Positions 25,685 to 59,147 of a DNA stretch of 64,000 nt are shown here, piece after piece. The position numbers and the translations under genes were made by a program. Source of the DNA: an uncultured Pseudomonadota bacterium (GTDB lineage: Bacteria; Pseudomonadota; Gammaproteobacteria; Ga0077536). Below the pieces are notes generated by a model that saw nothing but the letters and a program-made list of their open reading frames with translations, was not told where the DNA came from and searched no databases. How positions within the stretch are numbered: the stretch's first letter is position 1; every line of letters starts with the position of its first letter. Location: contig CAJWTO010000003.1 in assembly GCA_913047675.1 (NCBI GenBank), forward strand, positions 6,670-70,669, written 5' to 3'.

Positions 25685-25705
25685 TTTTTTTCTGAGTGGT
25701 TAACT

Positions 25706-38257: not shown

Positions 38258-38260
38258 GGC

Positions 38261-40305: not shown

Positions 40306-40307
40306 TG

Positions 40308-41240: not shown

Positions 41241-41266
41241 CTCGATATTCTTAATTAAAAAAGTAA

Positions 41267-42013
41267 TTATGACCGGACATTCAGTCCACGCCTCGAGAGA
41301 TATTGCTTTGCACTTTTAATGCTCGTTTCAGTAAAGTGGTATACGTTTGTAGTTGCTACCGCATCCGCACCAGCTACCATGAAACCATCAGCAAAGTCCT
41401 TCCACTTTCCAGCACCCCCACATACGATAACCGGAATTTTCACACTTTTTACCACGTCAGCATTCAACTTATTGTCGTACCCCTCAAGTGACCCGTCTTT
41501 TTCAACGGCGGTCAGCAATATCTCCCCTGCCCCTAACCCTTCAACCCGCTGAGCTAACTCCTCTGGTTGCCATTGTGTGGGATGTCTTCCGCAGTTCTTA
41601 TAAACACGGTAAACACCACTACTTTCTTTACGCACATCTATCGAAACCACAACAGATTGGCTTCCGAATCGCTTAGCTGCCTTTGTAATTAGCTCCGGCT
41701 GCTCTATGGCTTGCGTGTTTATAGCAACCTTGTCAGCCCCTAGATCGAGATAGCGCTTTACATCATCAAGGTCCCTCACTCCGCCTCCAACGCACATTGG
41801 TACAAAACAATTTTTACTGAATTTCGCCACTACGGATGAAAACAGCTCCGGATCGCGCCGCTCCGGACGGGTAACATCAAGCAAGACAATTTCATCAATT
41901 GACCATGCATCCACGAAATTTACGGTATACCGATAGTCTGGAATAAATGTCTTCGTTCGAAAAAGTATACCGTCGTTAAATGTAAGTACGGTAATAACCC
42001 TCTTTCTCAACAT
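41267..42013 (-). CDS. HisF-paralogue cyclase-like subunit (WbuZ-like) of a glycan amidotransferase
   Basis: 248 aa with RVITVLTFNDGILFRTKTF, VGGGVRDLDDVKRYLDLGADKVAINT and VCGGAGKW motifs. It is embedded with hisH-like and wbuX-like genes, not with his genes. Confidence 0.8.
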   Translation of the reverse strand: MLRKRVITVLTFNDGILFRTKTFIPDYRYTVNFVDAWSIDEIVLLDVTRPERRDPELFSSVVAKFSKNCFVPMCVGGGVRDLDDVKRYLDLGADKVAINTQAIEQPELITKAAKRFGSQSVVVSIDVRKESSGVYRVYKNCGRHPTQWQPEELAQRVEGLGAGEILLTAVEKDGSLEGYDNKLNADVVKSVKIPVIVCGGAGKWKDFADGFMVAGADAVATTNVYHFTETSIKSAKQYLSRRGLNVRS

Positions 42014-42633
42014 GTAGCAACAACACTCTCTGCAAAATTTCGCAGCATCATAAGGCCTTGGTGCTGACTCTTTTCTGGATGAAACTGAGTCCCGAATATA
42101 TTTTTCTTATGTATCGAAGCAACAAATTTTTGGCCATGATTGGAAAAAGCGGAAATATTTTCCCGATCTACACACTCCATGTGGTAACTGTGCGTGAAAT
42201 AAAACAATGTCTGCTCGGGTACGCCCGAAAAGATCGGATTGTCGTTAACTCTAATACAATCATTCCAGCCCACATGAGGAATGCGTATATGTGGTTCGGT
42301 CTGCTGAAGCCGAACCACTCTTGCTTTCACCCAACCCAGACCAGTCGAACAACCAAACTCCTCCCCTTCACTTGCCATCAACTGAAATCCGAGACAAATT
42401 CCTAGTATTGGCCGCGCCTGTTCAAGCACTAGTTCATTTAACAAATCTAATAAATCTAGCTGCTGCAGATTTTTCATACCATCTGGGAAGGCGCCGACTC
42501 CAGGAAGTATGAGCCCAGTAGCATCTCTAATTTGCGCTTTATCCGAGGTACATCGATACTGAATTTCTAGGCGCTCAAAGGCGGCGCAAATCGAACGAAG
42601 ATTCCCCAAGCCATAATCAACGATTGTCAACAT
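42007..42633 (-). CDS. HisH-paralogue glutamine amidotransferase subunit (WbuY-like)
   Basis: 208 aa with MLTIVDYGLGNLRS, the catalytic Cys in GICLGFQLM and FHPEKS. Confidence 0.82.
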   Translation of the reverse strand: MLTIVDYGLGNLRSICAAFERLEIQYRCTSDKAQIRDATGLILPGVGAFPDGMKNLQQLDLLDLLNELVLEQARPILGICLGFQLMASEGEEFGCSTGLGWVKARVVRLQQTEPHIRIPHVGWNDCIRVNDNPIFSGVPEQTLFYFTHSYHMECVDRENISAFSNHGQKFVASIHKKNIFGTQFHPEKSQHQGLMMLRNFAESVVATC

Positions 42634-42642
42634 TTTAAGAAC

Positions 42643-43791
42643 TCAACGAACCGGGTTTCTCAAAGTCCAAGAAGACCCATTTTTTTTCCATATTTCTGGA
42701 TTTCGGTGTTGGTCGACGATTTTTGAAAACTCGTCCATTGTCAAATCCAGATATTCTAGAACCTCATCGAAGTGCTCATAGCAAAATTCATCATCATATT
42801 TGCGAGCGAGATCAAGGCCTTCCTGTCTGGTCATATGGTCATTTTGTATAAGCCTACTAGCATCACGCACAGCGCGCCCAAAGCCGAATTTTATGAACTG
42901 CATGTAGTAATACAAGTTATCAATCTTATCGTCTAGGCTGTCGTAATTAGTAAAAGTGCTGTCAGTACGTCCTTTTTGATTAGTACGGAAATCAATCTTG
43001 TCTTTTATATACTGATAGTTCTCATACATAGACCAACGAAAAAAATACGAATAGTAATAAGCTTTTACGCCCACACTAGCGACCTGCTCTGAAGACGGAT
43101 AAACGTAAGCGTTTAAATCTTTCTCCGAGACTACATCATCAACCCAGTTTCGTGGATCATCCCCAACATAATTTTCTATTATTTCTGTAAAGTCTCTCGT
43201 GCGTCGATGCTCTTCGCTTAAAACTCTTCCCCCATACTCACTTTCTCCATGTTCTGCATAAAATACAACTGGAATTTGATATTTAACAGCCACCGTTACC
43301 GGAACAGAATTGATGCCCGCGTCCCATGCGACCTTTGGATTTCCACGCTCGATAAAGAACCGCTTCGCCAAATGGCGCAGAACTTTCTGATTGGCTCGGA
43401 AAAACAAGTGATCGAAACCGAGTTGGATCATTTCTTCACGATTGTGGTGTCCAATCTCGTTTGGAATCATGGGAGAGTAGGTGACGAGAAGGGGGTTTAA
43501 GCCAAACTCAAACTTCAGCTTATGAGCTATCGCGCTGCTGTCTTTCCCACCGCTCCATGGAACCACGCAATCATACTGTGCGTCGCTTCGCGCGCGCATG
43601 GGCTCTATAAGCCTGAGAAATTCGTGCTTACGTGATTCCCAATCGGTCTTGTTCTTCTCCTCTGCATTATGACAAGCATTACAGACACCTTCGCCATCGA
43701 AAACAACCCGCGGACGACTGTTCGGTGTTAAACAATACTTACAAAACGCAACATCACTTGAATTCATCTTGATCCAAAAATAATAAATCAA
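42643..43791 (-). CDS. N-acetyl-sugar amidotransferase (WbuX/WbpG/PseA family, PP-loop)
   Basis: CKYCLTPNSRPRVVFDGEGVCNACHN zinc ribbon and the PP-loop PWSGGKDSS. The Met at 43767 (MNSSDVAFCKYC) is the more likely start. Confidence 0.8.
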   Translation of the reverse strand: MIYYFWIKMNSSDVAFCKYCLTPNSRPRVVFDGEGVCNACHNAEEKNKTDWESRKHEFLRLIEPMRARSDAQYDCVVPWSGGKDSSAIAHKLKFEFGLNPLLVTYSPMIPNEIGHHNREEMIQLGFDHLFFRANQKVLRHLAKRFFIERGNPKVAWDAGINSVPVTVAVKYQIPVVFYAEHGESEYGGRVLSEEHRRTRDFTEIIENYVGDDPRNWVDDVVSEKDLNAYVYPSSEQVASVGVKAYYYSYFFRWSMYENYQYIKDKIDFRTNQKGRTDSTFTNYDSLDDKIDNLYYYMQFIKFGFGRAVRDASRLIQNDHMTRQEGLDLARKYDDEFCYEHFDEVLEYLDLTMDEFSKIVDQHRNPEIWKKNGSSWTLRNPVR

Positions 43792-43862
43792 ACTTACTAA
43801 TAAACAACCTTATAGACCCAACCAGGGTGACAGTACACCTCACCAGACAGTATAACCAGTCT

Positions 43863-44954
43863 TCACAAAATATTATTTAAAGAAGCTGCAAATTTCTCGA
43901 TAAGCTTTTCATATGTGAGTTCAGCCATCACCACGTCGTAAGCGTTCGAAGTAATTATTTCACAGAAGCTATCATCACGAAGTTTTTCCACTACATCTTG
44001 CAAATTCGTACCATCTTTTTTCAGGCAAATGTAATGCTCGTCACCCTCAAAATAGCCGCTATAAGTTCCTTCATAAAGTATTTGAACAGTCTTACAAGCC
44101 GCTGCTTCGACTTGCCTCCCACTGATAATTCGTATCGGAACCGTCTTAGGCATATCGTCAAAAAACTTTGACTTAATTTCTACCCACGTTGATGATGGGT
44201 TAGAAATGATGTGAGCATTGATTTTTTTCCTGATCTCATCGTCTAGTTCGAAATAATCCCCACCAGCCTCGGTTCCTATTTGACCACGACAATCATTGAG
44301 AAAAATAGCAAAATTATGGGTATCAAACCGCTTATCAGGATCAAAGGATATATCTATACTGAGTTCATATTTTTGTGCGTTTCGAACAAATAAATCCGCG
44401 ATCTCCGCTTTCTCGTTATTCCCCAAATATAATGGTGCCTCAAATGCACGATAGCCCACATCAATACTTCGATCTTTTAATGCCTTCTGAGGCTGGAAAT
44501 TTAACGCATCAAAGCCTGTGTTTGGAATACTATCAACACAGCAGCCAAGCGCACGCCTGTACATCGAAAGCACCCTGGGATCGTTACTTTGCGAAATTAG
44601 AAGATCAATCCCAAGATGGCGACAAAATCTCATTTTTTCCGGCATTAGTTTATACTCATTACCAATAAAAAACACTTTGGGAGTCCTGCACAGAGACAGG
44701 GAAAGAGAGGATAACCTCCTCAAATTTCGCTGATTTGAAAATACCGAATGTAATAAAACAATTGCATCAAATCTCTCTCGATGAAAATACACAGCAATTG
44801 CGGCCTCATCTACCAGCGACTTCCCGGCTAGGTTGATAGGCTTACAATCGAACAATGCGGAGTTAAGAAAAGCCTTGGGCCAGCCATGTTGGTAAGACAA
44901 AGTAGCATTGCTTTGTGATTGTTCGAAAACGAGCGCGATTCGCCTTCGCTTCAT
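43863..44954 (-). CDS. CgeB-like (Glyco_trans_1_2-type) putative glycosyltransferase
   Basis: 363 aa. IDVGYRAFEAPLYLGNNEK and ISGRQVEAAACKTVQIL resemble the CgeB/DUF3880-type GT-B C-terminus. The assignment is weak. Confidence 0.4.
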   Translation of the reverse strand: MKRRRIALVFEQSQSNATLSYQHGWPKAFLNSALFDCKPINLAGKSLVDEAAIAVYFHRERFDAIVLLHSVFSNQRNLRRLSSLSLSLCRTPKVFFIGNEYKLMPEKMRFCRHLGIDLLISQSNDPRVLSMYRRALGCCVDSIPNTGFDALNFQPQKALKDRSIDVGYRAFEAPLYLGNNEKAEIADLFVRNAQKYELSIDISFDPDKRFDTHNFAIFLNDCRGQIGTEAGGDYFELDDEIRKKINAHIISNPSSTWVEIKSKFFDDMPKTVPIRIISGRQVEAAACKTVQILYEGTYSGYFEGDEHYICLKKDGTNLQDVVEKLRDDSFCEIITSNAYDVVMAELTYEKLIEKFAASLNNIL

Positions 44955-45003
44955 ATTTATTCATTCACCATAATCGTGTACAGAAGCTGTGCGATCATTC
45001 TTT

Positions 45004-46203
45004 TTACTTTACCGCCACAAACGAAACTGATTGCGAAGTTAGATCCTGAATTCCTATGTCTGGCGTATTTTCGTAACATTCGCTAATTATTTTCGGAGAT
45101 AAATCTGCTGTGAATTTTCTTGGTGACGGTTTTGCAGTCCAAACTGCGAGTCGAAAGCCAGCTAGAGAAATAATTCGCTGTACTCGCCACTGAGGCATAT
45201 TTCGGTGTAATGCGCTTTTCACCCAATCAATACCAATCTCAGCCTCTTCCGGTCTCAATTCAGCCAAATAACGTAAGTATTCCGTTTCGTTCAAACGCAC
45301 GTGCGCCCAAGGAGAATCTCCGATACCTAAGGCATGCCCTCCGTCATGCGAAAAATATGGGGCGTAATTGTGTACTATCGCCCCCCCAGGTTTCAGCAGT
45401 CGATACATTTCAACGAAAGCCGCCTCTAGATCTTGGATGTGCTCAAGTACACTTACAGAATAAACAATATCAAAGCTCTGTGAAGGGAAAGATGTTCGTC
45501 GAGTAATATCGCCTCGCACATAATTAACATTCGACTGGGTAACCTGTTTAATATGTTCATGTAAAGACGTTTCGTTTGCAATATCGCCGTAGTAGTTGTC
45601 TATTCCATAAGCTTCGAAACCCAATTGCTCAAACGCTTGAATGGAATGTCCGCCGGATATATAGCCAATCTCCAGAACGGAAGCACGCTTAGGAGCGATG
45701 TATACATTAGCTGCAGATAATTTTTTAAACATCGAAGCGTGGTGGCTTCGAAACGAATTGATGGTTCGCTTTATTAAATGATCATCAGGTAAAAACTCAG
45801 GCAGTCCATCTTTATCTTCCGAGCCCTCGATAAAAAAAGCTCTGTTTTTTCTGACACAATTTCTGGCGATAAGATTGATTTCAGCAAGACTTGAATTTAT
45901 GGTTCGTTTTCCAATAGCTTTACTCAAAAACTTCTTCTCAGTAGGATCAATCTTCCCGCGAGAACTCAAGACCGACAAAATATGTAGGCCTCGAAAATAT
46001 TTCCACCCGGGCTTAACGGTATATCTGTAATCTCTGTAAACGGGAATTTTTCGTCCATCTTCAGCCACGAAAAACGTCTCTTCCACTCCATATTTATTTC
46101 TGATGGATTTATCAAAATAATAATCAAAGGATGATCCTACTCGTTTGGCTAGAAAACCCAACGTTAAAGTTATTAAATAATTTCTAATAAATTTTATGAG
46201 CAT
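45004..46203 (-). CDS. Class I SAM methyltransferase with ~170-aa N-terminal domain of unknown function
   Basis: 399 aa. The C-terminal half carries VLEIGYISGGHS, IVYSVSVLEHIQD and LLKPGGAIV. No motif was recognised in the N-terminal part. Confidence 0.65.
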   Translation of the reverse strand: MLIKFIRNYLITLTLGFLAKRVGSSFDYYFDKSIRNKYGVEETFFVAEDGRKIPVYRDYRYTVKPGWKYFRGLHILSVLSSRGKIDPTEKKFLSKAIGKRTINSSLAEINLIARNCVRKNRAFFIEGSEDKDGLPEFLPDDHLIKRTINSFRSHHASMFKKLSAANVYIAPKRASVLEIGYISGGHSIQAFEQLGFEAYGIDNYYGDIANETSLHEHIKQVTQSNVNYVRGDITRRTSFPSQSFDIVYSVSVLEHIQDLEAAFVEMYRLLKPGGAIVHNYAPYFSHDGGHALGIGDSPWAHVRLNETEYLRYLAELRPEEAEIGIDWVKSALHRNMPQWRVQRIISLAGFRLAVWTAKPSPRKFTADLSPKIISECYENTPDIGIQDLTSQSVSFVAVK

Positions 46204-46231
46204 AGTTTAGGCATATTCGTGGGCGGACAGA

Positions 46232-47476
46232 CTACGAGCGAGCACGGAATGCATCCAGGAGATTTGAAAACGCGATTACATAATACATAGATAACAGGAT
46301 TGCCTGAACGCATCGAGCACAAATCATCCCTGCAGCACCATATTCAATTAATGCAATCCACAAAAGGACTGTTACCGCTGGCGCTCCCACATTTGGGATG
46401 TAAGTATATTTTGGTCTCTTGGTCGCCAATAAAGCTAATCCCAAATAACTAAATGATCCCGAGCAACAAATTACTAGCCACAGCCATTTGGCATAAATGC
46501 CAGCAACCATATACTCCTCAGAAAAAAGTAAAGGGACAATGAAGGGGATAGTCAAGAAACCTAAAGTCCCTAAAAGAGTGAACCCCAAAGTTAACCAAAT
46601 AAATTTCTTTTTAAAATACTTCCATAACTCTACCGGTGAATCAGTCGAATAGATCTTTGGGGCAGCGACTTGCCCAACAATACCGAAAACAGCTTTCAAC
46701 AGGCCCGGTAACACCAAGGAGACGCTATAGACAGCGACAACCTCCAGCGTATGGAAATTCTCTAAAAAAACCACGTCGAGTGCGAGTATGCTCGAGAACA
46801 TCAAAGCTATACTCGCATGTCGGCCGAATTTCAAAAGACTACTATCGTAATCAGAATTTTGTCTCAACGTCAGCGCTTTATTAAGTAACCAAATGTTAAG
46901 CAATGAAATTGATAACATAATCATACTAATAACTAACCATATACTGCTCACGTCAAACAAGGCTAATACAACAACGGCAAAAAATAACAGTCCACCGTTA
47001 AGCGATCTACCGCTAGCTAACCATAAAAATCTTGACTTGCCATTAAACCAACCTGGCCACAAGTCAGCAATGTTGTATAGAGGAAATATCAAGGCTGCTA
47101 ATGCAAGGCCATAGGCTAATTCGATAGAGTCTTCTCGCAAGAAAAAATAATAAGCCGCCACGCACATTATCACTGACGATCCAAACCAGTTCGCCAGGAA
47201 TTTCTTACGAATTAGAGGACCAAGGTTTCCGTCAGCACCTTTGGATGCCGACATCAAAGCAATCTGGCCTATACCTAGCGAGCAAAACGCTCCAGCAAAA
47301 CTTATGACTCCTATCACTACCTTGAATTGCCCGTACATTTCTATTGGCATCCATCTTGTCCAGACGATCGTACTACCTAAACCAAGTAAAAGAGTCAAAA
47401 CATGACCGAACCCGAGTAGCGACCCGTTCTTAATTTCACGACTACCAACAATTTTTTTAAATATACTGGAGTTCAA
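46232..47476 (-). CDS. wzx: Wzx-type polysaccharide/O-unit flippase (MOP superfamily)
   Basis: 414 aa, hydrophobic throughout (roughly 12 TM segments by eye), in the usual position within a glycan locus. Confidence 0.7.
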   Translation of the reverse strand: MNSSIFKKIVGSREIKNGSLLGFGHVLTLLLGLGSTIVWTRWMPIEMYGQFKVVIGVISFAGAFCSLGIGQIALMSASKGADGNLGPLIRKKFLANWFGSSVIMCVAAYYFFLREDSIELAYGLALAALIFPLYNIADLWPGWFNGKSRFLWLASGRSLNGGLLFFAVVVLALFDVSSIWLVISMIMLSISLLNIWLLNKALTLRQNSDYDSSLLKFGRHASIALMFSSILALDVVFLENFHTLEVVAVYSVSLVLPGLLKAVFGIVGQVAAPKIYSTDSPVELWKYFKKKFIWLTLGFTLLGTLGFLTIPFIVPLLFSEEYMVAGIYAKWLWLVICCSGSFSYLGLALLATKRPKYTYIPNVGAPAVTVLLWIALIEYGAAGMICARCVQAILLSMYYVIAFSNLLDAFRARS

Positions 47477-47515
47477 TACGGGTTTTCTAGTTAATTAAAG
47501 CAAGAATAGTCGATA

Positions 47516-48049
47516 CTAAAACTGATCGCCAACCAAGGTTATCTGACCATTTAACCGACTGTGTGGATCATAGACCATACATCTCTCGTCCGCAGTAAGA
47601 GTACGGCTTTTATGTGTATTTGTAGACTCGATTTGAATAGCAATAAGTTGGCTCCAGTCACAAGCACGATAGAACTCAACTTGAGAACTCCAACAAAGTA
47701 AATACCCCAAATTAACGCCTACACGATTAATATACGTCGTTGCCGCACCTAACAGTTGTTTTCCTCGACCCTGTCCGCGGTACTCCTTAGACACACACAC
47801 TTCAGTAGCACATAGTGCAACCAGACATTCGCCATTCGACAGGATACTGCCTTTTCGCAACCGCAAAAACGCTAGGATTGAACCGTCATTTACCAGAGTA
47901 ATAAGAACGTCATCTTTGCCGGTATATCTTTCCCACCACTTCAATTGTGACTCCATGGAGTGAGGCCAATATTGCTCTTTTATAGAACACATTACGACAA
48001 CCTCTTCCGGAGTTACCTGGGAAGGAGATTGAATATTCGATACGATCAT
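47516..48049 (-). CDS. GNAT-family N-acetyltransferase
   Basis: 177 aa with the acetyl-CoA motif A (VCVSKEYRGQGRGKQLL). Confidence 0.75.
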   Translation of the reverse strand: MIVSNIQSPSQVTPEEVVVMCSIKEQYWPHSMESQLKWWERYTGKDDVLITLVNDGSILAFLRLRKGSILSNGECLVALCATEVCVSKEYRGQGRGKQLLGAATTYINRVGVNLGYLLCWSSQVEFYRACDWSQLIAIQIESTNTHKSRTLTADERCMVYDPHSRLNGQITLVGDQF

Positions 48050-48075
48050 TATCGTTTATCCAATGGGTGCTATGT

Positions 48076-49098
48076 TTAATTCAAAATGGTGGATATTTCT
48101 GGAAGGGAAAGCAATAGATTCTGAACTTCGTTTACGGAAAGACGAGAGGCATTCTTGGAATCGAAGGGTGGAGTATTCCCAATCTGAGCGGTCCCTCTTA
48201 CAAAGTATTTGTCGAAACTTTGACCTGTGTCACAAGGAATACGCCAGTATTCTCCTTGATCATCCGCTCGCGCAACTTCCTCAGCCGTAGCCAATGTCTC
48301 ATGCATTTTTTCCCCTGCTCGGATACCAATAATCTCGACCGCATTACTCGCGCCAAAAAGGTTTAGACAGGCCTGCGCAAGATCGCCAATCTCACAAGCT
48401 GGCGCTTTACGAATAAACATATCTCCATTTCTTCCATTTCTCAAAGCATGAAGTACTAAATCGATGGCATCACTTAGCGGCATCAAGAATCGGGTCATAC
48501 CCAGATGCGTCGCCGTAAGAGAAACGCCGCGCTGTATTTGATCTACAAATAATGGCACTACCGATCCACGTGAATACAAAACATTACCGTAGCGTACGCC
48601 ACACATGATGGATGGGTCGCTTGCTTTTTGAGCCTGAGCCCTCGCAATCATAAGTTTTTCCATCATCATTTTGCTACACCCCATAGCATTTACGGGGTAG
48701 GCTGCTTTGTCTGTGCTTAGAACCACCAATCGCTCGACACTATGATGCAAGGCTGCATCGATCACATTGTTCGTCCCTATGATATTTGTTTGAACAGCCT
48801 CCATTGGAAAGAATTCACATGACGGTACCTGCTTCATCGCAGCAGCATGAAAGACCATGTCTACTCCGCGCATGGCGCGCATGACCCGCCTTTCATCGCG
48901 AACATCGCCAATCTCAAATTGGATTTTTGGATTATTAAATGCAAGGCGCATATCGTGCTGTTTTTTCTCATCACGACTGAAAACAACAATACCCGCAACT
49001 TCGTTTTCAGATAGCAACCGGTTCAATACAGCCCTCCCAAAAGACCCTGTTCCACCGGTGATCATAATGGTCTTACCAATTAGCTCGGTCATATCCAC
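48076..49098 (-). CDS. fnlA: UDP-GlcNAc 4,6-dehydratase/5-epimerase, CapE/FnlA/WbjB type
   Basis: 340 aa, colinear by eye with S. aureus CapE: ITGGTGSFG, FSRDEKKQ, HAAAMKQVPSCEFFPMEAVQTNIIGT, and NAMGCSKMMMEK, i.e. M-x3-K instead of Y-x3-K. Confidence 0.85.
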   Translation of the reverse strand: MDMTELIGKTIMITGGTGSFGRAVLNRLLSENEVAGIVVFSRDEKKQHDMRLAFNNPKIQFEIGDVRDERRVMRAMRGVDMVFHAAAMKQVPSCEFFPMEAVQTNIIGTNNVIDAALHHSVERLVVLSTDKAAYPVNAMGCSKMMMEKLMIARAQAQKASDPSIMCGVRYGNVLYSRGSVVPLFVDQIQRGVSLTATHLGMTRFLMPLSDAIDLVLHALRNGRNGDMFIRKAPACEIGDLAQACLNLFGASNAVEIIGIRAGEKMHETLATAEEVARADDQGEYWRIPCDTGQSFDKYFVRGTAQIGNTPPFDSKNASRLSVNEVQNLLLSLPEISTILN

Positions 49099-49515
49099 TC
49101 AATTCGCAAGTTCCATAATGGTATCAGGGTCAGCCGAGTCAAATTCCTTCGATGCATAAGCAATGATTACGGCTTCTTTCTCTGTCTCATTGACTACCGC
49201 ATGAGACGTACCCGGCCCAGCAAAAACCAACCTAGGCGAATCTGAATCGAGCTGCTCATCGAATCGATCGCCATCTTTAGTTTTCATTAAGAGCCTTAAC
49301 TGACCCGAAACGCAAGTAAACCATTCAGATTTGTGCTGATGAAAGTGATCACCACGGCGAGCTCCTGGAGCGACGGTATAAACATATATCTGTCCGCCCT
49401 GCGGAATAGCTTGTGATGAGAACCGTAATGCCTCGTATAAAATGCCTCTGTCGTCACTATGGACCTCTAGATCTTCAATGCCGCAAGCCATATCCCAAGA
49501 TTTTTTTCTAATCAT
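49099..49515 (-). CDS. Standalone cupin resembling the C-terminal domain of CapF/FnlB
   Basis: 138 aa. HSDDRG...PGARRGDHFHQHKSEWFTCVSGQL...GPGTSHAVVNE...EFDSADPDT parallels the CapF C-terminus (DERGSF...GITKGNHWHHTKNEKFLVVSG...PVGYTHNIEN...FDPNQPDT). There is no SDR domain. It abuts the fnlA start codon. Confidence 0.65.
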   Translation of the reverse strand: MIRKKSWDMACGIEDLEVHSDDRGILYEALRFSSQAIPQGGQIYVYTVAPGARRGDHFHQHKSEWFTCVSGQLRLLMKTKDGDRFDEQLDSDSPRLVFAGPGTSHAVVNETEKEAVIIAYASKEFDSADPDTIMELAN

Positions 49516-49525
49516 TTCCTAATCC

Positions 49526-50665
49526 CTAGACAAACTTGTTGTCTTTAGCTCCCCATACCTGCTCATCGATCACACGTCCCATACCAATGATAATACGTAC
49601 AATTTTTTTTGACACCTCCTGCTGAAGATATGCTTCGGGAGCGGGGGACCGACTTGTATTTATTCCGTCTTCGATCACTAATTTGACTGTCCTCAGCACG
49701 TCCTCCTTATTTAACCCAGTGATGGGGCAGTGGCCGGCCTCTAGAGATTCTTGCTTTTCCGTTGACTTACGAATAGCAATAGCTGGGAAACCCAGGATGG
49801 CAGAATCTTCATGTATCGTTCCACTGTCAGAGATCACACAACACGCCTCCATCTGCAAACGAATAAAATCTATTAGGCCGAAAGGCTCATGCCAATTAAT
49901 CAGAGGATTACTGCGCTCTAGCAACCGCTGTTGCTCTAACCTACGACGGGTACGGGGATGTGTACTGACAATAATCGGAAAGTTATAAGCCTCTGCGAGG
50001 CTATTTAGCGTATCTACTAGAGTATCAAGTGCGCCGCCCTTGTCGACGTTCTCCTCTCGATGAATGCTTGCGGTAAAAAAGTTGTGAGGCTTGATTCCGA
50101 GTTCAGCCAAGATAGTACTCTCAGAGAACTTTTCTCTCATGGTTTTATACACCTCACAAACTGGACTGCCAACAACCATGACATCACGAGGATGCAGACC
50201 TTCACGCAGCAAGTTGCGACGGCTGTGCTCAGTATAAGCCAGATTGACATCGCTAGCATGATCAATAATACGACGATTCAACTCTTCAGGAACATCATTA
50301 TCAAAGGAACGATCGCCAGCCTCTATATGGAAAATAGGGATTTTCTTTCGTTTAGCACAAATCACTGATAAGCCCGAGTTAGTGTCTCCCAAAATCACTA
50401 TCGCATCTGGCCTTTCAAGATCCATCACATCACCAGTTTTCTCGATGATCCTAGCAATTTGACCTTGTAGAGTGTCAGACTTCGTCTCTAAGATGTAATC
50501 GGGTTGCCGTAAGTCAAGTTCCTCGAAGAAGACGGAGTTTAGGTTTCTGTCATAGTTCTGGCCCGTATGAACGAGCAAATGCTCGCAATGTTTATCGAGC
50601 ATCTTAATAATCGCAGCCAGACGAATAATTTCAGGCCTCGTGCCAAGTATGGTCATTACCTTCAT
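49526..50665 (-). CDS. fnlC: UDP-HexNAc 2-epimerase, CapG/FnlC/WbjD type
   Basis: 379 aa, colinear by eye with CapG: TILGTRPEIIRL, LVHTGQNYD, ILGDTNS, IPIFHIEAGDRSFD, VPEELNRRIIDHASDVN, STHPRT, SDSGT. Confidence 0.82.
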   Translation of the reverse strand: MKVMTILGTRPEIIRLAAIIKMLDKHCEHLLVHTGQNYDRNLNSVFFEELDLRQPDYILETKSDTLQGQIARIIEKTGDVMDLERPDAIVILGDTNSGLSVICAKRKKIPIFHIEAGDRSFDNDVPEELNRRIIDHASDVNLAYTEHSRRNLLREGLHPRDVMVVGSPVCEVYKTMREKFSESTILAELGIKPHNFFTASIHREENVDKGGALDTLVDTLNSLAEAYNFPIIVSTHPRTRRRLEQQRLLERSNPLINWHEPFGLIDFIRLQMEACCVISDSGTIHEDSAILGFPAIAIRKSTEKQESLEAGHCPITGLNKEDVLRTVKLVIEDGINTSRSPAPEAYLQQEVSKKIVRIIIGMGRVIDEQVWGAKDNKFV

Positions 50666-51807
50666 CGAGCCACCTTTTTTAAAATCTCGATTATACGCGC
50701 TTGATCATCCTCTTTGAGCCACCATCCACAGGGAATAGAAAGTTCCCGGTCATCAAACCAGTCGGTATTGGGTAATTCCCGGCTATCAGACGTAAACATT
50801 GAGTAGCGATCGTTTCTTACATGAATCTGTGCGGCATCAATACCAGCTTCGTCAAGCGCATCAATAACAGTATTACGGTTCTCCACTAATACCGTGTAAC
50901 CCCAGTAAGTTTGGTAATCCAGTGGGTCACGGCGAAGAATCTTGATACCTGGCGTATTCTCTAGTAGAGCATCATAGCGGCGCCCGTTTTGATGAAAGCG
51001 TTCTAAAATCCATTCAATATGCTTTATTTGCGCTAAACCTAAGGTGCCAGCTATATCATTCATGTTGCCCTTAAACCCCCAATCAGGGATATCCTCATGC
51101 CAAACATCTCGCCCCTCACGAGCATCTCGATCTATCCCGAACCACTTAGCTTTTTTTGCAAGTTCGTAATCCATATTGTTACTGCAGAGCAAAGCACCTC
51201 CATCACCCGTAGTAATATGTTTTATGGCCTGAAACGAAAAACAAACGAAATCACCAATAGCACCGATACGGTGAGTGCGTCGTTTTGCTCCAAAGGCATG
51301 AGCAGCATCTTCGATAACGCGCAACCCATGATCTTTTGCTAGGGCATAAATACTCTCTATCTCAGCCGGCGCACCTTCCTTATGCACGAGATAGATGGCT
51401 CTAGTTTGCGACGAAATCAAGGGTTCTATAGTCTCCGCTGTCACCATACCAGTAGACCGATCAACATCAGCCCATACTGGTCGGCCGCCCAACATACGAA
51501 TTGGCTCATTACCAGCGATACACGTTAAAGGTGTTGAAATCACCTCAGCGCCAGGCCCTACTCCTGACAACTTAAAAGCAATCGTCAGTGCCATCGTACA
51601 TGAATTTACCGGAACCACTCTTGGGTTACCAATGAATTGGGCTATTCGCTCAGCAAATGCCTCAACTTTTTTCCCCTCCGCAAGAAAGCCACTGTCTAGC
51701 GTTTCAGCCATCATCTCAGCTGCCTCGGGAGGCATGAAAACCTTGAATAGAGGAATTCTTCCAATCTTTTCGTCTGATCGTGATCTACGTGATTTCGTCA
51801 TAAACAA
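50662..51807 (-). CDS. DegT/DnrJ/EryC1-family PLP-dependent sugar aminotransferase
   Basis: 381 aa with the PLP-lysine context FSFQAIKHITTGDGG and the IEDAAHAFG motif. There is a 4-nt overlap with fnlC. Confidence 0.85.
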   Translation of the reverse strand: MFMTKSRRSRSDEKIGRIPLFKVFMPPEAAEMMAETLDSGFLAEGKKVEAFAERIAQFIGNPRVVPVNSCTMALTIAFKLSGVGPGAEVISTPLTCIAGNEPIRMLGGRPVWADVDRSTGMVTAETIEPLISSQTRAIYLVHKEGAPAEIESIYALAKDHGLRVIEDAAHAFGAKRRTHRIGAIGDFVCFSFQAIKHITTGDGGALLCSNNMDYELAKKAKWFGIDRDAREGRDVWHEDIPDWGFKGNMNDIAGTLGLAQIKHIEWILERFHQNGRRYDALLENTPGIKILRRDPLDYQTYWGYTVLVENRNTVIDALDEAGIDAAQIHVRNDRYSMFTSDSRELPNTDWFDDRELSIPCGWWLKEDDQARIIEILKKVAR

Positions 51808-51953
51808 GTATTTAAAACACTAGGCCTTGGTCTATAAAAATTAAAAATTCATTAAACAAGCAATCGGCTGAGAAGGTAGGTGATTGAATGCTATACATCT
51901 TTACGTTTGTTGGACAAGAAGGAGCCCTGTAACCAAAAAATTTCGAAAAACCT

Positions 51954-53759
51954 CTACATTTTACTAATTAGTACTTGACCAACCCAAAGATCGTCTATGT
52001 CGGTAAGCTCAAAAACCCGATACGCGTCCTTAGCTGAGCGAACAATCGGTTCACCGTGAAGATTAAACGAGGTGTTCAGAACACCGCCAACACCAGTAAT
52101 AGCGTTGAACTCCGATATCAGCGCATGGAACTCTGAATTTTGTTCACTATCCACCAGTTGGGGTCGGGCAGTATGATCGACCGGATGAATCCCTGCAGCC
52201 AAATCTTTTTGTGCGATGTCATGCGTCTCAAATGCAATCGTCATATAAGGTGCAGACAATTTTTTTGGATTTTTTAAGTACTTGTCGGCGAATTCGACTA
52301 GAATCGCAGGCGCAAAAGGCATCCAGAAGTCGCGGTTTTTTATTTTGTCATTTATTGTTCGGATCATCTTATCTGATCTCGGATCTGCGATAATTGATCG
52401 ATTTCCCAAGGACCTCGCGCCGAACTCCATCCGCCCAGCACATCGGGCTATCACTCGCCCTTGCGCTAACTTTTTAGCAACTGCTGCTGGGTCGACGTCC
52501 CTAGTCACAATATAGCGGGTCTCGCCTCTTTTTTGTATGTCATTTAATAGCTCTTGAACTTCATCAGCATCAATATCGGTACCAAGGTAAGCATTATCGA
52601 GCGGTCGGATGGAGGACTCTCCTAAAGCTTTTGCACAATGAAAAGCGGCTCCCATACCAAGAGATTCATCACCGGGGCTAGGAGGAACAAAGATTTGATC
52701 GATACAATCTAGCTCAGACAACTTTTGGATAGCCTTGATATTCATGACAACACCACCTGCAAGTACGATTCGACGTATGCCGTATTTGGCGACTACATTT
52801 TTGACCCATTCACAAATGAGCTCCTCAACATATTTCTGCAACCCGCCAGCAATTCCGTCAAAACGCAGCCCCTCAAGTTTTTCTCTGAAGTGGTGATAAA
52901 GATCCTTTGGTCTATCGCGAAACTTAAAATCAAGCCCATCAACGTACATCGTTTCGCGAAAAACCTCATAAGCCTTAGAATATATCTGCGGCTTCGCGTA
53001 AGGTGCCAAACCCATTACCTTATACTCATGTTCATCAGGCTTCATACCAAGTAAAAGAGTGATATACCTGTAAATTCTCGCGACCTGGAAGTCACGGTGA
53101 GAAATAGTTTTAATTCTTTCCAGTTTCCCATCATCGCCAATTGAGATTGAGGCACTGTTACCGTCGCCAAATGCGTCAAGAGTCAAGACGAGCGTTTGGC
53201 CATCACGAAATGGACTCGCGTAATAAGCGTATGCTGCATGCGCGGTGTGGTGGTCCACAAATTGGAATCGATCGCCCGGGACCCCAATATGTTCCTCTAT
53301 CGTAGTTACTATATGTTCACGTATTTTTCGCTGATCTTCATCCGTATAAAAGTGCTCGCCAGAAAGGTTCTCAGCTAATGCCCTCCAAGTACCTGGATAT
53401 TGCTCAAAATCGAGTCGCTCTGCATACAAATCTTGCCATGCGATCTCTTGGCCATCACACAGAACTGGTTTCCAGTAACTATGTTGTTCGTTCATTCGGT
53501 CTTCTATATTAAAACCTGAGTAGTAGCGGCCTAACCGATGCCATAGATCATGCTCAGTTGACCCAATGGCAACGCAATCTATTTCGTTACCTGACTTTAT
53601 CCCAGCGCGCAAGCAACAGTACTCAATTGCTTCCTTTGGATAAGATTCATCATTTTTTTTTCTAGAAAAGCGCTCTTGAGACAAACAGGAGTCAAGAACA
53701 CCGTCAATGTAGATTGACGCGGTTGCCATGTAACCGAGGTTTAGCCCCAATATTTTCAT
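51954..53759 (-). CDS. NodU/CmcH-family carbamoyltransferase
   Basis: 601 aa. MKILGLNLGYMATASIYIDG..., HHTAHAAYAYY, and a C-terminal YrdC-like/Kae1-like layout typical of O-carbamoyltransferases. Confidence 0.8.
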   Translation of the reverse strand: MKILGLNLGYMATASIYIDGVLDSCLSQERFSRKKNDESYPKEAIEYCCLRAGIKSGNEIDCVAIGSTEHDLWHRLGRYYSGFNIEDRMNEQHSYWKPVLCDGQEIAWQDLYAERLDFEQYPGTWRALAENLSGEHFYTDEDQRKIREHIVTTIEEHIGVPGDRFQFVDHHTAHAAYAYYASPFRDGQTLVLTLDAFGDGNSASISIGDDGKLERIKTISHRDFQVARIYRYITLLLGMKPDEHEYKVMGLAPYAKPQIYSKAYEVFRETMYVDGLDFKFRDRPKDLYHHFREKLEGLRFDGIAGGLQKYVEELICEWVKNVVAKYGIRRIVLAGGVVMNIKAIQKLSELDCIDQIFVPPSPGDESLGMGAAFHCAKALGESSIRPLDNAYLGTDIDADEVQELLNDIQKRGETRYIVTRDVDPAAVAKKLAQGRVIARCAGRMEFGARSLGNRSIIADPRSDKMIRTINDKIKNRDFWMPFAPAILVEFADKYLKNPKKLSAPYMTIAFETHDIAQKDLAAGIHPVDHTARPQLVDSEQNSEFHALISEFNAITGVGGVLNTSFNLHGEPIVRSAKDAYRVFELTDIDDLWVGQVLISKM

Positions 53760-54078
53760 CTATTATCCCTGCTGTTATTCTTCGATATCGGAACGACAAC
53801 CGACGTAGCACGAAAGTGCGTTAATTCGAACCTACCTTTGTTAAAAACGCCGATCATGAATCGCGCTTTCTACACCGTATTTTTTCATTAAAAATAGAAA
53901 TATACTGAATCGAATTCGCCATTTTTTAATGTAAAAAGAATATATATTTAAAATGCCGAGTATGTTACATGACACTGGTTGCTCCAACAACTAGGACTAT
54001 TTGTCGGTAGAAGCATATGAAATTTTAAAGATTATTTAAATCAGCTAAATCCAGCAGAACTGTGATGAAATTGGTCTT

Positions 54079-55083
54079 CTAACTTTTTGTAAGTTGCGTT
54101 TGAAATTTCCATGTGCTAGCACACATATTTATCAAATCACGGCTTGCTTTCCACTTCAGCTCACGCTGCGCTATTATCGTACTAGAGTAAAATTCAGCTA
54201 TATCGCCAGCACGTCTGGGTACAACTCGAAACGGAATACTCTTACCAGATGCCACCTCAAACGCATCGATAATTTCAAGAACACTATACCCTTGGCCAGT
54301 ACCAAGATTAATCGATTGCCAACTTGGATGTTTACGCAGATAAGTGAGCGCAGCAGCATGACCATCGGCTATATCCATGACGTGAACATAGTCGCGAACA
54401 CCTGTTCCGTCCCGGGTAGGATAATCGTTACCGAACACATTTAACACTTCTCGCAATCCAGAAGCTACTTGCGCAATATAAGGCATGAGATTACTAGGAA
54501 TACCCTTCGGATTCTCCCCAATCAATCCGCTATCATGAGCCCCAACGGGATTGAAATAACGCAAACAGGCAATACACCACTCTGAGTCTGACGCAGCCAC
54601 ATCTGCAAGCATTTCCTCGATATGAAGTTTGCTACGCCCATATGGGCTAATCGGATTAGTGGGGTGCTGTTCGTCAAACGGCAGATATAGCGGATCACCA
54701 TAAACCGTAGCACTACTGCTAAATACAAGCGATTTAACCTGCGCTAACCGCATAGCGCATAGCAAGCTAATCGTACTCTGTACATTATTATCGTAATACT
54801 CTATTGGTTCTTTCACTGATTCAGCAACCGACTTGGAGCCTGCAAAGTGAATAACGGAATCAATCTTGAACGAGGTCAGCACATGTTTAAGTGTCTCAGT
54901 GTTACGAACATCGCCTTTCACAAAATTAATTTTTTGCCCACAGATTTTCTCAATATTTTTAGCAACGATCTCAGTGCTATTCGATAAATTGTCATATAAG
55001 GTAATTTGATTTCCTAAATGCGACAACACAACGGCCGTGTGGCTACCGATGTATCCCAAACCACCTGTCAAAAGGACATTCAT
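54079..55083 (-). CDS. galE: UDP-glucose (or UDP-GlcNAc) 4-epimerase GalE
   Basis: 334 aa with VLLTGGLGYIGSH and YGRSKLHIE (YxxxK) motifs and GalE-typical length. Confidence 0.88.
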   Translation of the reverse strand: MNVLLTGGLGYIGSHTAVVLSHLGNQITLYDNLSNSTEIVAKNIEKICGQKINFVKGDVRNTETLKHVLTSFKIDSVIHFAGSKSVAESVKEPIEYYDNNVQSTISLLCAMRLAQVKSLVFSSSATVYGDPLYLPFDEQHPTNPISPYGRSKLHIEEMLADVAASDSEWCIACLRYFNPVGAHDSGLIGENPKGIPSNLMPYIAQVASGLREVLNVFGNDYPTRDGTGVRDYVHVMDIADGHAAALTYLRKHPSWQSINLGTGQGYSVLEIIDAFEVASGKSIPFRVVPRRAGDIAEFYSSTIIAQRELKWKASRDLINMCASTWKFQTQLTKS

Positions 55084-55088
55084 AGTCT

Positions 55089-56099
55089 CTAATTTTTATA
55101 ATAATCCAAATACCAAGATACAAAATTTTTAACGCCCGTATCAATCGAAGTAGTTGGCCTATATCCGAAATCATTTGTTAGCGCACTAACATCTGCATGA
55201 GTGTCAGGCACATCACCTGGCTGCAATGGTAAAAGCTCATATCGCGCTTCCATCCCCAAAGAATCTTCAATCGCTTGGATGTACCGTAATAACTCCACTG
55301 GCTTACTATTGCCAATATTGTGAACACACCAAGGAGCGCTACTTGACCCCGGGTCTGGGGAGGCTCCGGACCATGTAGAGCTCGACGACGCGGGCCTATC
55401 AATCACCCTCACAACCCCCTCAACTATATCGTCGATGTAAGTAAAATCTCGTTTGTGTTTCCCATAATTGAACACTTGTATTGTTTTGCCCTCAAGAATG
55501 GCTTTGGTAAATTTAAATAAGGCCATGTCCGGGCGACCCCAAGGGCCATAAACAGTGAAGAAACGTAGTCCGGTGGTGGGTAAACTGTATAGATGACTGT
55601 AAGCATGAGCCATTAATTCATTACTCTTTTTACTAGCAGCATACAATGACAATGGGTGGTTTACGCTTTGATTGATAGAAAAAGGCATCTGAGTATTAGC
55701 GCCATAAACGCTTGAACTGCTCGCGTAAACTAAGTGGCCGACGCCATTGTGTCTACACCCTTCTAAAACATTTATGAAGCCAACAATGTTACTTTCAATA
55801 TATGCATGTGGATTTTCTATTGAATAGCGAACACCAGCTTGGGCTGCGAGGTTAACGACACAATCAGGCCTATATTCTTTAAAGGCTCTTGTGACTTCAT
55901 CTCGGTCTGCTATGTCCATACGCATATGGTCGTAATGCGTGTGCGAGAGATTTCTTGCTAATCTAGCTTCCTTGAGATCGGGATCATAATAATTATTATG
56001 ATTATCCATTCCCAATACGACGTCTCCACGCTTCAAGAGAGACGATACTAGTTGGGCGCCAATAAAGCCGGAAGCTCCGGTCACCAAAATTCTTTTCAA
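55089..56099 (-). CDS. UDP-glucuronate 4-epimerase (Cap1J/LpsL/WbnF type)
   Basis: 336 aa with [14 protein letters not shown] and YAASKKSNE. The N-terminal region [17 protein letters not shown] is typical of UDP-GlcA epimerases. There is a 4-nt overlap with ugd. Confidence 0.8.
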
Positions 56100-57265
56100 G
56101 AATCACCCCCAAACAAATCTCGGCTATATACTTTGCTTGATACGTCATGAAGGTCTTCAGAAAGTCTATTTGCTACGATTATGTCAGCCTTAACTTTGAA
56201 CAAATCCAGATTATCAACCACTTTTGAATTATAAAAATATTCTGCACTTATCAGTGGCTCATAAACAATTACTTCAATGCCTTTCGCCTTCAAGCGCTTC
56301 ATTATGCCTTGTACACTGGACGATCGAAAATTACCCGAACCAGCTTTCATGATTAGTCGATAGATACCAACCACTTTAGGGGTTTTCGCGATTATGTCAT
56401 CAGAAATAAAATCTTTGCGTGTCGAATTAGATTCAACAATAGCCTTTATCAAAACCTGAGGTACGTCACGATAATTAGCAAGCAATTGCTTGCTGTCTTT
56501 TGGCAAGCAATATCCCCCATATCCAAAACTAGGATTATTGTATTTGCCCCCTATCCTAGGATCTAGGCAAACGCCCTCCACTATATCTCTCGGATCCAGA
56601 CCATGGGTCGCAGCGTAAGTATCAAGTTCATTGAAGTAAGCCACTCGCATTGCAAGGTATGTATTAGCAAATAACTTAATGGCCTCAGCCTCCGTTGATT
56701 CTGTGAGCAGTATTGGAATATCTTTTATTAACGCATTTTTCTTAAGCAATTCAGCGAATGCAAGCCCACGTGCTGAGCGTTCTCCCACCACGATTCTCGA
56801 TGGATAGAAATTATCTTGTAAAGCCTTATCTTCTCGCAAAAACTCTGGAGAAAATAATATATTTTGAGTGCCTAGTTTCTTCTTTATTGCTTCCGTGTAT
56901 CCAACAGGCACTGTGGACTTAATCACAATAGTAGCGTTCTCATTTAAACGCAAAGCATCTAAAATCGCACCATCTACCGAACTAGTGTCAAAATAATTTG
57001 TTTTTTCATCGTAGTCAGTAGGAGTGGCGATAATGACATAGTCAGCATTCAAGTAGGCAGTTTGCTTATCCGTTGTCGCTTGAAGTCTCAAAGCAGTTAG
57101 TCGAAGATGATCCTGCAATTCCGATTCAGCATTCGGCAGTTTCTTGGCGTTGAGCAAATCAACTTTCACCCGATCCACATCCAGACACATCACGTCTTCA
57201 CTCTTGGCTAACAGTATTCCATTAGAGAGGCCCACGTAACCGGCTCCAACAATAGTGATTTTCAA
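56096..57265 (-). CDS. ugd: UDP-glucose 6-dehydrogenase
   Basis: 389 aa with [15 protein letters not shown] and the catalytic Cys in GGYCLPKD. It uses a TTG start preceded by AAGAGGT with an 8-nt spacer. Confidence 0.92.
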
Positions 57266-57833: not shown

Positions 57834-59147
57834 TTACATCACAGAACCAGCGGGCTTATTTTCAACATACCAACATAAATATGCAAAGAAAATAGCCAAA
57901 CAAACCCCATAAAAGGAGGTGGTCATTTTCAAATTAAACACTTGGATAGTGAGAGAGGATGCGACAATAGGAACAATCATACCGAGACCAACCGCCAAAG
58001 GACTTCCAACAGCAAAAGTCAGGTTCCTATATTTCCAAAGAAGTAGATAGAGTGGATAGAAAAACAGACTACAAAGTGTTAACACGCCGAACATGAGACC
58101 CTGACGAACCGGTTGCGCTAACAGCTCAGAATGAGAGCCAGCCAAAACCTTAATATCGTATATTTCTCTGTTCAACAACGGAACCATTAGCGATAACTCC
58201 TCATAAGGAGGCAATGACGACCGATCTCCAAAGCCAAAGAATGGGTTGCTCTTTATTAAATGAATATCTATCAGCCCCAAAATAATTCTCTGGCCACTTG
58301 AAGTCCGCTGAACACCACTGTCATCTTGAAATAAAAATGCCACTACTCCCCGAACAGATTCATTAACTCTGTCATGCACAATATCCGAAATAAAATAAAC
58401 GAGTGTGAGTACTATTATCAGTCCTATTAGCCCAATCACTTGGGTTTTAAAAGAGTGTCGAAAACAATACATCACATAGACAGTTAGCAAACAAGCGAGT
58501 GCGACGAATGAACTCCTTGACCAAGACTCAACCGCGATATATGCGGCAATAATAGTCAGGACAACCTTAAAGAATACGTCAATACGTCCTGGAAATACTT
58601 TTCTACCCCAAAAGAGAGTCAGCCCAAGCAAACCGATTGTAAAACATGGAAGCGTAATTGGATCTACGAAGTAAGTTGCGGCTCGCCAACCCCAATAATC
58701 ATTAGGAAAAATAACTAGCGACAGAAGCACACCGATCACACCAAAAGCTGCACCATAACTCAGGCACTGAATCAGTTTCATCGAATCAAATCTGGATAAA
58801 TATACAAAAACACCTGCCGCCAGAATCATCCTTGAAGGGCCATCTAAACTAGAACCAATGATCTGTCCCCTACCAATCTGGGCAAATAATTCAGAAAAAA
58901 ATGGCAAGACCAAACATACAAGCAACACCCAAAACTGCTTACTTCGGTTACTAAAGTAATAAGTCCAATTTCTAATAATTGGCCAACAACAGATGAGAAA
59001 AAGTAAAAAAAGACTAGTTGTCACCCAACTTTTGACTGTCAAAAAAAAGACGGGCATAAAGAAAACTATGCTCGAAATCAATTCTGCCCGCCCATAAGAA
59101 TGGCTATTGAAATTTCGCCAAAAATTATTCACAAACTCATCGCCCAA
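57834..59147 (-). CDS. O-antigen ligase family (Wzy_C domain) membrane protein (WaaL-like or polymerase)
   Basis: 437 aa with more than 10 TM segments and a periplasmic loop carrying the conserved His context GSHSELLAQPVRQGLMFG. It uses a TTG start. Confidence 0.7.
   Translation of the reverse strand: MGDEFVNNFWRNFNSHSYGRAELISSIVFFMPVFFLTVKSWVTTSLFLLFLICCWPIIRNWTYYFSNRSKQFWVLLVCLVLPFFSELFAQIGRGQIIGSSLDGPSRMILAAGVFVYLSRFDSMKLIQCLSYGAAFGVIGVLLSLVIFPNDYWGWRAATYFVDPITLPCFTIGLLGLTLFWGRKVFPGRIDVFFKVVLTIIAAYIAVESWSRSSFVALACLLTVYVMYCFRHSFKTQVIGLIGLIIVLTLVYFISDIVHDRVNESVRGVVAFLFQDDSGVQRTSSGQRIILGLIDIHLIKSNPFFGFGDRSSLPPYEELSLMVPLLNREIYDIKVLAGSHSELLAQPVRQGLMFGVLTLCSLFFYPLYLLLWKYRNLTFAVGSPLAVGLGMIVPIVASSLTIQVFNLKMTTSFYGVCLAIFFAYLCWYVENKPAGSVM

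Follow-up and report, generated by a model that had tools for sequence, protein, structure and literature searches.

The serotypes of O-antigens and capsules are set by rare bacterial amino sugars, which also determine recognition by phages and antibodies as well as vaccine epitopes. Among the pathways that supply them, the UDP-L-FucNAc route is one of the closest described relatives of the system reported here, and the division of labour among its enzymes CapE, CapF and CapG (equivalent to WbjB/C/D or FnlA/B/C) is documented (PMC3699295). Within a 64,000-nucleotide stretch of DNA from an uncultured marine gammaproteobacterium (positions 6,670 to 70,669 of contig CAJWTO010000003.1, assembly GCA_913047675.1; hereafter the window), we analysed a compact gene module that has the same types of dehydratase and UDP-sugar 2-epimerase, together with a small cupin, encoded on its own, that is a homologue of the CapF C-terminal domain. 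Unlike the UDP-L-FucNAc pathway, however, the module is devoid of the short-chain dehydrogenase/reductase (SDR) half of CapF, always has a DegT-family aminotransferase instead and adds an N-acyltransferase, such that its predicted product would bear nitrogen rather than a hydroxyl group at C4; its dehydratase and cupin also fall below the FnlA and WbcJ equivalog cutoffs, respectively. We put at roughly 0.6 the probability that this module makes a C3-epimerised, C4-aminated, N-acylated and usually C2-epimerised L-sugar from UDP-GlcNAc.

The module shares features with other pathways as well. Pseudaminic acid biosynthesis follows the same logic, in that PseB, PseC and PseH provide an inverting UDP-GlcNAc 4,6-dehydratase, a C4 aminotransferase and a GNAT working on an L-configured 4-keto-6-deoxy-HexNAc. 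The module differs from it in having a dehydratase with Met rather than Tyr at the diagnostic position, an aminotransferase nearer to AtmS13 and ArnB, and a cupin and an FnlC-type 2-epimerase in addition; moreover, no PseG was found in the window, and the NeuB-like protein and cytidylyltransferase encoded in the same cluster score under the PseI and PseF cutoffs. The UDP-L-QuiNAc/L-RhaNAc pathway of Vibrio cholerae O37 (WbvB/WbvR/WbvD) is a branch of the FnlA-type route that keeps the dehydratase and 2-epimerase and swaps the middle enzyme; where that pathway uses WbvR, a different C4 reductase, the module has a cupin and an aminotransferase. The FdtA/QdtA plus FdtB/QdtB routes likewise employ a small stand-alone cupin on a nucleotide-4-keto-6-deoxy sugar before a DegT enzyme and an N-acyltransferase come into play, but these routes start from dTDP-glucose by way of RmlA/RmlB and aminate C3, whereas the module combines a UDP-GlcNAc dehydratase with a CapF-like cupin and a C4-like aminotransferase. 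A natural 4-amino derivative of L-FucNAc, beta-L-Fuc2NAc4NMe (2-acetamido-4-(methyl)amino-2,4,6-trideoxy-L-galactose), occurs in the terminal trisaccharide of the lipopolysaccharide (LPS) of Bordetella pertussis and would represent the module's sugar class if amination gives the galacto configuration (PMC10743493).

All five open reading frames (ORFs) of the module, including that of the GNAT, lie on the minus strand at the positions given in the original prediction (Table 1). The DegT and 2-epimerase genes overlap by 4 nt, the cupin gene begins 10 nt past the end of the 2-epimerase gene, the dehydratase starts at the GTG immediately behind the stop of the cupin gene, or else 6 nt later at an ATG, and the GNAT gene lies 26 nt downstream of the dehydratase gene. 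Each of the five has strong matches to its family, and chance is therefore no issue. Identical contigs were found in several ocean metagenomes, on which gene callers give the DegT ORF 379 aa, compared with 381 aa here.

The arrangement recurs in other genomes. A metagenome scan returned 80 loci, and linkage was counted in 28 non-identical related loci whose cupin gene is flanked by 4 kb or more in each direction, with partners sought within 6 kb. A DegT homologue was present in all 28, an FnlA-type dehydratase in 26 and an FnlC-type 2-epimerase in 19. Cupin identities among the related loci range down to 36%. The survey for a cupin-only capF beside a DegT gene, which had been proposed as a check, thus returned a DegT neighbour in every locus counted. 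Three gene orders were seen: DegT-epimerase-cupin-dehydratase, which characterizes the window's clade; dehydratase-DegT-epimerase-cupin; and dehydratase-DegT-cupin, in which an epimerase gene is missing altogether. Carriers include Burkholderiales, Candidatus Methylopumilus universalis, Aestuariispira insulae, Kiloniella spongiae, and metagenome-assembled genomes (MAGs) of Sphingomonadales and Phycisphaerae, and the cluster of Ca. Methylopumilus universalis shares synteny with the window across some 20 kb, cytidylyltransferase included. The combination of DegT aminotransferase, cupin and FnlA-type dehydratase is a conserved and widespread module and not the product of decay. The epimerase-less loci, from other metagenome assemblies, form a sub-family of their own (L056, L059-L063, L066-L070, L073-L076, L078 and L080-L082 in our numbering of related loci), whose product presumably differs from the window's sugar in its configuration at C2. 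One of these, L074, has a hexapeptide acetyltransferase gene followed by a GT1 gene downstream.

The stand-alone cupin is, by sequence scores, closest to the C-terminal domain of CapF/WbjC. It matches PF14667, the Pfam family of that domain, at 73.5 bits, compared with 39 bits for PF05523 (FdtA); residues 245-355 of Cap5F align with it at an E-value of 1e-7; and it covers only positions 251-364 of the WbcJ profile NF047837, whose cutoff is 500 bits, with a score of 54 bits. When the cupin was aligned with the C-terminal domain of E. coli WbjC, 16 positions proved invariant, namely H57, H59, E64 and H105 of the cupin motif and twelve others (D21, R23, G24, E28, R54, G55, K62, N109, D131 and T132 among them). 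CapF was also the top Foldseek match of an AlphaFold (AF2) model of the cupin (predicted local distance difference test, pLDDT, 87.4), at 28% identity, the highest among the structural hits shown. The earlier alignment of this protein by eye with the CapF domain is in line with the family scores, the top structural match and the residues shared with WbjC.

The absence of an attached reductase is a property of the cupin family and not of this contig alone. Its 88 close homologues are about 138 aa long, a profile of more distant members recovered 326 further homologues of 133-172 aa, and nearly all of 84 related loci encode the cupin on its own, almost always as an ORF of about 135-180 aa. When 1.84 billion representative proteins were searched exhaustively with a profile (E ≤ 1e-10), 594 representative clusters were obtained. 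The best 47 all measure 74-158 aa, and full-length FnlB-like proteins, which have 364-377 aa and match through their C-termini, do not come up until scores have fallen to about 85 bits. Databases label these cupins 'dTDP-4-dehydrorhamnose 3,5-epimerase-like' or 'WxcM-like', or else wrongly 'UDP-2-acetamido-2,6-beta-L-arabino-hexul-4-ose reductase'. At L037 (3329-3721), the cupin frame is open for ~500 aa, suggesting that it is fused to the epimerase gene upstream or that the long frame is a sequencing artefact.

A tblastn search of the whole 64-kb window with the N-terminal half of E. coli O29 WbjC (E ≤ 1e-3) found no CapF/WbjC SDR half. Coupled with intergenic gaps of 10 nt or less in the module, this rules out a decayed SDR domain there, and the statement that the module has no SDR reductase holds, the search for remnants that had been suggested having returned nothing. 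The other SDR genes nearby (a GalE equivalog, a 336-aa epimerase and a PglF-like dehydratase; Table 1) are none of them CapF-like. These results bear on another explanation, in which the locus encodes an ordinary L-FucNAc or L-FucNAm pathway whose C4 reductase lies elsewhere, while the DegT enzyme serves another sugar such as the product of the PglF-like dehydratase. We regard this as very improbable. It would account for the WbuX/HisH/HisF genes, a typical feature of L-FucNAm clusters, and for the PglF-like dehydratase and PglC-like transferase of the window, for which no dedicated aminotransferase or reductase was found anywhere in the window. It does not, however, explain why DegT is linked to the cupin in all 28 loci and in three gene orders, mostly without a PglF-like gene, nor why a WbjC-type reductase lies near the module in only one of about 85 related loci (L068), and the cupins form a family separate from full-length FnlB, as the lengths of the 47 best clusters indicate.

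With the reductase missing, the aminotransferase becomes the candidate for acting at C4 of the 4-keto intermediate. CalS13 and ArnB are C4 aminotransferases, while QdtB and WbpE act at C3. Among solved relatives, the DegT protein scores highest with AtmS13 (236.7 bits, over the full length), followed by CalS13 (197) and ArnB (about 160), and lower with PseC (122), WbpE (103) and QdtB (84). Its segment FSFQAIKHITTGDGG aligns with FSFQALKHLTCGDGG of AtmS13, an enzyme postulated to aminate a 4-keto L-pentose at C4 (PMC10951976). In NCBIfam, the protein falls under the PseC, ArnB and LegC equivalog cutoffs (PseC, 222 against 423.5 bits), and, having AtmS13, CalS13 and ArnB as its nearest relatives, it does not group with PseC, as it would be expected to do in a standard pseudaminic acid pathway. 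No other DegT gene is present in the window. Judging from these similarities, C4 is the likely position of amination.

The first and last enzymes of the UDP-L-FucNAc route have clear counterparts. The dehydratase scores 380 bits with S. aureus CapE and 363 with A. baumannii FnlA, but 230 with H. pylori FlaA1/PseB, and has 53% identity to E. coli O29 FnlA; in the NCBIfam scan, it reaches 400 bits with the FnlA model and 317 with that of PseB, the latter under the cutoff of 407.75. Its segment STDKAAYPVNAMGCSKMMMEK places Met, in place of Tyr, at the position of CapE Met134, and the STDK...NAMGCSK segment keeps the Asp-Lys, Met and Lys residues that were found to matter by mutagenesis of CapE (PMC3699295). 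At the Met134 position, the partner dehydratases of 56 loci have Met in 51 cases, Leu in 5 and Tyr in none, and the proposed CapE/FnlA assignment, as opposed to PseB, is borne out by both the scores and this residue. The 2-epimerase is of CapG/FnlC type and predicted to be non-hydrolysing, again in keeping with its first assignment and not with the hydrolysing NeuC/LegG enzymes: it scores 361 bits with CapG, has 44% identity to E. coli O29 FnlC, and exceeds the cutoff of the non-hydrolysing wecB model TIGR00236 (245 against 210 bits) while remaining under that of the NeuC model TIGR03568 (69 against 236 bits). It had no tblastn match to the Epimerase_2 gene in the legionaminic-type cluster of L097.

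Taken together, the family placements suggest that the four genes and the GNAT encode a pathway that leaves the UDP-L-FucNAc route once the 4-keto sugar has formed. By close homology, the CapE/FnlA-type enzyme would catalyse 4,6-dehydration and C5 inversion of UDP-D-GlcNAc to UDP-2-acetamido-2,6-dideoxy-beta-L-arabino-hexos-4-ulose, and the cupin, given its conserved residues and its likeness to the cupin domain of CapF, would epimerise C3 of this 4-keto sugar. The DegT enzyme would then transaminate C4, replacing the NADPH-dependent reduction performed by the SDR half of CapF, to yield UDP-2-acetamido-4-amino-2,4,6-trideoxy-L-hexose. We favour C4 transamination because the reductase is missing, DegT is invariably linked to the cupin and the enzyme is akin to C4 aminotransferases; the idea that transamination takes the place of reduction, put forward in the original prediction, is supported on these same grounds. 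The adjacent GNAT may acylate the new amine, as its position suggests and as does the interchange of acetyl-, formyl- and hexapeptide-type transferases there: GNAT homologues lie downstream of the module in L004, L007, L008, L011, L013, L031 and L094, a formyltransferase is found at the module in L009, and hexapeptide acetyltransferases in L074 and L046. Such variety is expected if the module yields a free amine that is capped differently by lineage. Either before or after this step, the FnlC-type epimerase would invert C2, converting the talo/manno into the galacto/gluco series, a reaction that must be optional because a whole sub-family of loci does without the gene. The predicted end product is a UDP-2-acetamido-4-acylamido-2,4,6-trideoxy-L-hexose, of galacto/gluco configuration where the epimerase is present and talo/manno where it is not, which would be used by a glycosyltransferase of an O-antigen or capsule cluster.

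Several points weigh against this scheme. All of its steps are deduced from homology and from the linkage of genes, we know of no glycan from the carrier organisms that contains such a sugar, and a reductase may be encoded outside the window. The dehydratase, at 400 bits, is below the FnlA equivalog cutoff of 730, and its exact product is therefore not guaranteed. Below the top three families, the similarity scores of C4 and C3 enzymes to the DegT protein are intermixed. As for the cupin, it also matches the FdtA family, and in the Foldseek search the epimerases ChmJ, NovW and RmlC and the ketoisomerases FdtA/QdtA lie within one order of magnitude of CapF (E-values of 2e-9 for CapF versus 2e-8). 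With scores this close, the fold alone does not settle the chemistry of the cupin, and we discarded the fold search as a means of telling epimerase from ketoisomerase. In an alternative scheme, the cupin would be an FdtA/QdtA-type 3,4-ketoisomerase and the DegT enzyme would aminate C3, giving a 2,3-diamino-2,3,6-trideoxy-L-hexose such as L-RhaNAc3NAc or L-QuiNAc3NAc. The FdtA match exceeds its gathering score of 23, the structures of FdtA, FdtD and QdtA match the cupin model at E-values of about 2e-8, and there is precedent in L-RhaNAc3NAc, a known O-antigen sugar thought to come from UDP-GlcNAc (PMC9676051). Nonetheless, this scheme appears quite unlikely, since the score of the cupin against the CapF-domain family is nearly double that against FdtA, CapF has the highest identity among the structural hits shown, and the C3 enzymes QdtB and WbpE score lower with the DegT protein than do AtmS13, CalS13 and ArnB. 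It is also at odds with the O-antigen clusters of E. coli O182 (L091 and L092), in which an FnlA/PseB-like dehydratase is accompanied by two adjacent DegT genes and a GNAT of 270 aa, with neither a cupin nor a 2-epimerase. We take the O182 cluster to resemble the L-RhaNAc3NAc cluster of O109. For want of the cupin and the 2-epimerase, the O109/O182 route was rejected as a known equivalent of the module; the O182 clusters are a different solution for a diamino-trideoxy-L-hexose.

If C4 amination after C3 epimerisation is correct, the L-FucNAc route has been rewired through a split of CapF, which retained the epimerase domain and exchanged the reductase for a transaminase. A function could then be assigned to the widespread small cupins of the 594 representative clusters, explaining hundreds of misannotated genes; UDP-2-acetamido-4-amino-2,4,6-trideoxy-L-hexoses would be predicted in many environmental bacteria; and the module would be a candidate route to L-FucNAc4N-type sugars such as that of B. 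pertussis LPS. Full-text searches returned no description of a module of FnlA, cupin and aminotransferase and nothing relevant on 2,4,6-trideoxy-L-hexoses or L-FucNAc4N-type sugars as its products, although this is weak evidence because most subscription journals were not covered. Among the NCBIfam models scanned, there is none of which the cupin, aminotransferase or dehydratase is an equivalog. Known enzyme families have thus apparently been recombined into an uncharacterised but widespread pathway, the logic of which a specialist could foresee once the genes are seen.

The module lies in a polysaccharide cluster of roughly 33 kb (23771..57265), downstream of a tRNA-Phe gene. The features discussed are collected in Table 1.

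Table 1. Features of the polysaccharide cluster and its borders, numbered from the first nucleotide of the window.
Feature	Position	Strand	Remarks
PglF/WbpM-like 637-aa dehydratase (23771..25684) and 187-aa PglC-like phosphoglycosyltransferase	23771-26269	-	cluster end, before hemA/prfA/prmC
Ulosonic-type block	34787-40305	-	NeuB-family, AsnB-like amidotransferase, CTP_transf_3, GT2 fusion, MptE/sialyltransferase-like
MptE/GT42-like (sialyltransferase-like) protein, 318 aa	34787..35743	-	
NeuB-family protein, 235 aa	35725..36432	-	Pfam 172.5 bits; no SAF domain; SDH/EKH/GPDH motifs kept
CTP_transf_3 cytidylyltransferase, 224 aa	38261..38935	-	PseF 19 bits, cutoff 205.7
WbuX-type N-acetyl-sugar amidotransferase and HisH/HisF paralogues	41267-43791	-	acetamidino formation
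GT-B glycosyltransferase outside Pfam, 363 aa	43863..44954	-	no Pfam or NCBIfam family; AlphaFold pLDDT 90.8; Foldseek GT4 (PimA, BshA)
GNAT N-acyltransferase, predicted to act on the new amino group	47516..48049	-	Pfam Acetyltransf_9, _7 and _1 matches
CapE/FnlA-type UDP-GlcNAc 4,6-dehydratase/5-epimerase	48076..49098	-	M-x3-K; CapE 3vvb 380 bits
Stand-alone cupin, homologue of the CapF/WbjC/FnlB C-terminal domain, predicted C3 epimerase of the 4-keto intermediate	49099..49515	-	138 aa; PF14667 73.5 bits
CapG/FnlC-type UDP-sugar 2-epimerase, non-hydrolysing type	49526..50665	-	CapG 7ya2 361 bits
DegT-family pyridoxal-phosphate aminotransferase, predicted C4 aminotransferase	50662..51807	-	381 aa from TTG start; Pfam DegT_DnrJ_EryC1 282.7 bits
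NodU/CmcH-type carbamoyltransferase	51954-53759	-	
GalE equivalog	54079..55083		
Epimerase, 336 aa	55089..56099		beside ugd
tRNA-Phe(GAA)	57654-57729	-	head of cluster, between the O-antigen-ligase/Wzy_C-like gene (57834..59147) and ugd

As regards this wider context, the first reading of the locus had the module genes right and missed the block of NeuB-like, cytidylyltransferase and sialyltransferase-like genes 8-13 kb away. Judging from its families, that block looks like a unit for the synthesis and transfer of an ulosonic acid, its GT2 protein carrying a cytidylyltransferase-like C-terminus, and it raises the question of whether the module leads to a new sugar or, less probably, to a new nonulosonic acid. 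In the latter event, the module would be the hexose phase of a new nonulosonic acid pathway feeding the SAF-less NeuB-like enzyme: a 2,4-diacylamido-2,4,6-trideoxy-L-hexose (galacto, gluco, talo or manno) would be freed from UDP, condensed with phosphoenolpyruvate, and activated with CMP by the CTP_transf_3 enzyme, with the MptE/GT42-like protein as the transferase. Such a route would end in a new stereoisomer of a 5,7-diamino-3,5,7,9-tetradeoxynonulosonic acid of the pseudaminic/legionaminic class, possibly bearing an acetamidino group by the action of WbuX/HisH/HisF; to our knowledge, no such stereoisomer has been reported. The co-residence of NeuB-family, CTP_transf_3, GT2-cytidylyltransferase-like fusion and MptE-like genes in the module's own cluster speaks for this route, as do the absence from the window of a second dehydratase, aminotransferase or 2-epimerase to feed the NeuB block, the correspondence of the module's enzyme types to the front half of the pseudaminic and legionaminic acid pathways, and the synteny retained in Ca. 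Methylopumilus, which extends to the cytidylyltransferase. We nevertheless consider it unlikely. The module's 2-epimerase belongs with the non-hydrolysing CapG/FnlC enzymes and the window yielded no PseG-like hydrolase, while the NeuB-like protein has no SAF domain and is far under the NeuB and PseI cutoffs (152.6 bits against 340 for PseI). Many loci, such as L007, L046 and L074, have the module and glycosyltransferases with no NeuB within 8-10 kb. Furthermore, L008, L009, L029, L031 and L038 carry the module plus a separate canonical nonulosonic acid pathway, so that co-occurrence does not imply that the module feeds NeuB, and we dropped co-occurrence as proof of such a link.

The 363-aa GT-B protein encoded between the two groups of genes bears on the same question. 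It has at least 542 homologues of very constant length and accompanies the module in 10 of 33 long loci. Its homologues directly adjoin canonical legionaminic-type pathways in L097, L099 and L100, which would favour the nonulosonic acid route, whereas its own resemblance to GT4 enzymes argues against that route. Such legionaminic-type clusters do not contain the module. Homologues also occur beside ManNAc3NAcA-type genes, and they are often paired with an MptE-like protein; the link of the GT-B protein to the module's sugar is uncertain. We rejected it as a PseG-like UDP-sugar hydrolase on account of the GT4 match of its model, and a further counter to that assignment is the occurrence of homologues beside ManNAc3NAcA-type genes and legionaminic-type clusters that have an Epimerase_2 of their own.

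Carbamoylation or amidination of the sugar by neighbouring genes had also been proposed. The WbuX/HisH/HisF and carbamoyltransferase genes do accompany the module in its close relatives (L011, L013 and L094), which agrees with the proposal for these loci, but support does not extend beyond them, and we therefore place these genes outside the module core. Elsewhere in this otherwise tightly packed cluster, about 650 bp (34133-34786) contain no ORF of at least 60 aa, and this gap coincides with the lowest G+C content of the window (0.383 at 34001-36000).

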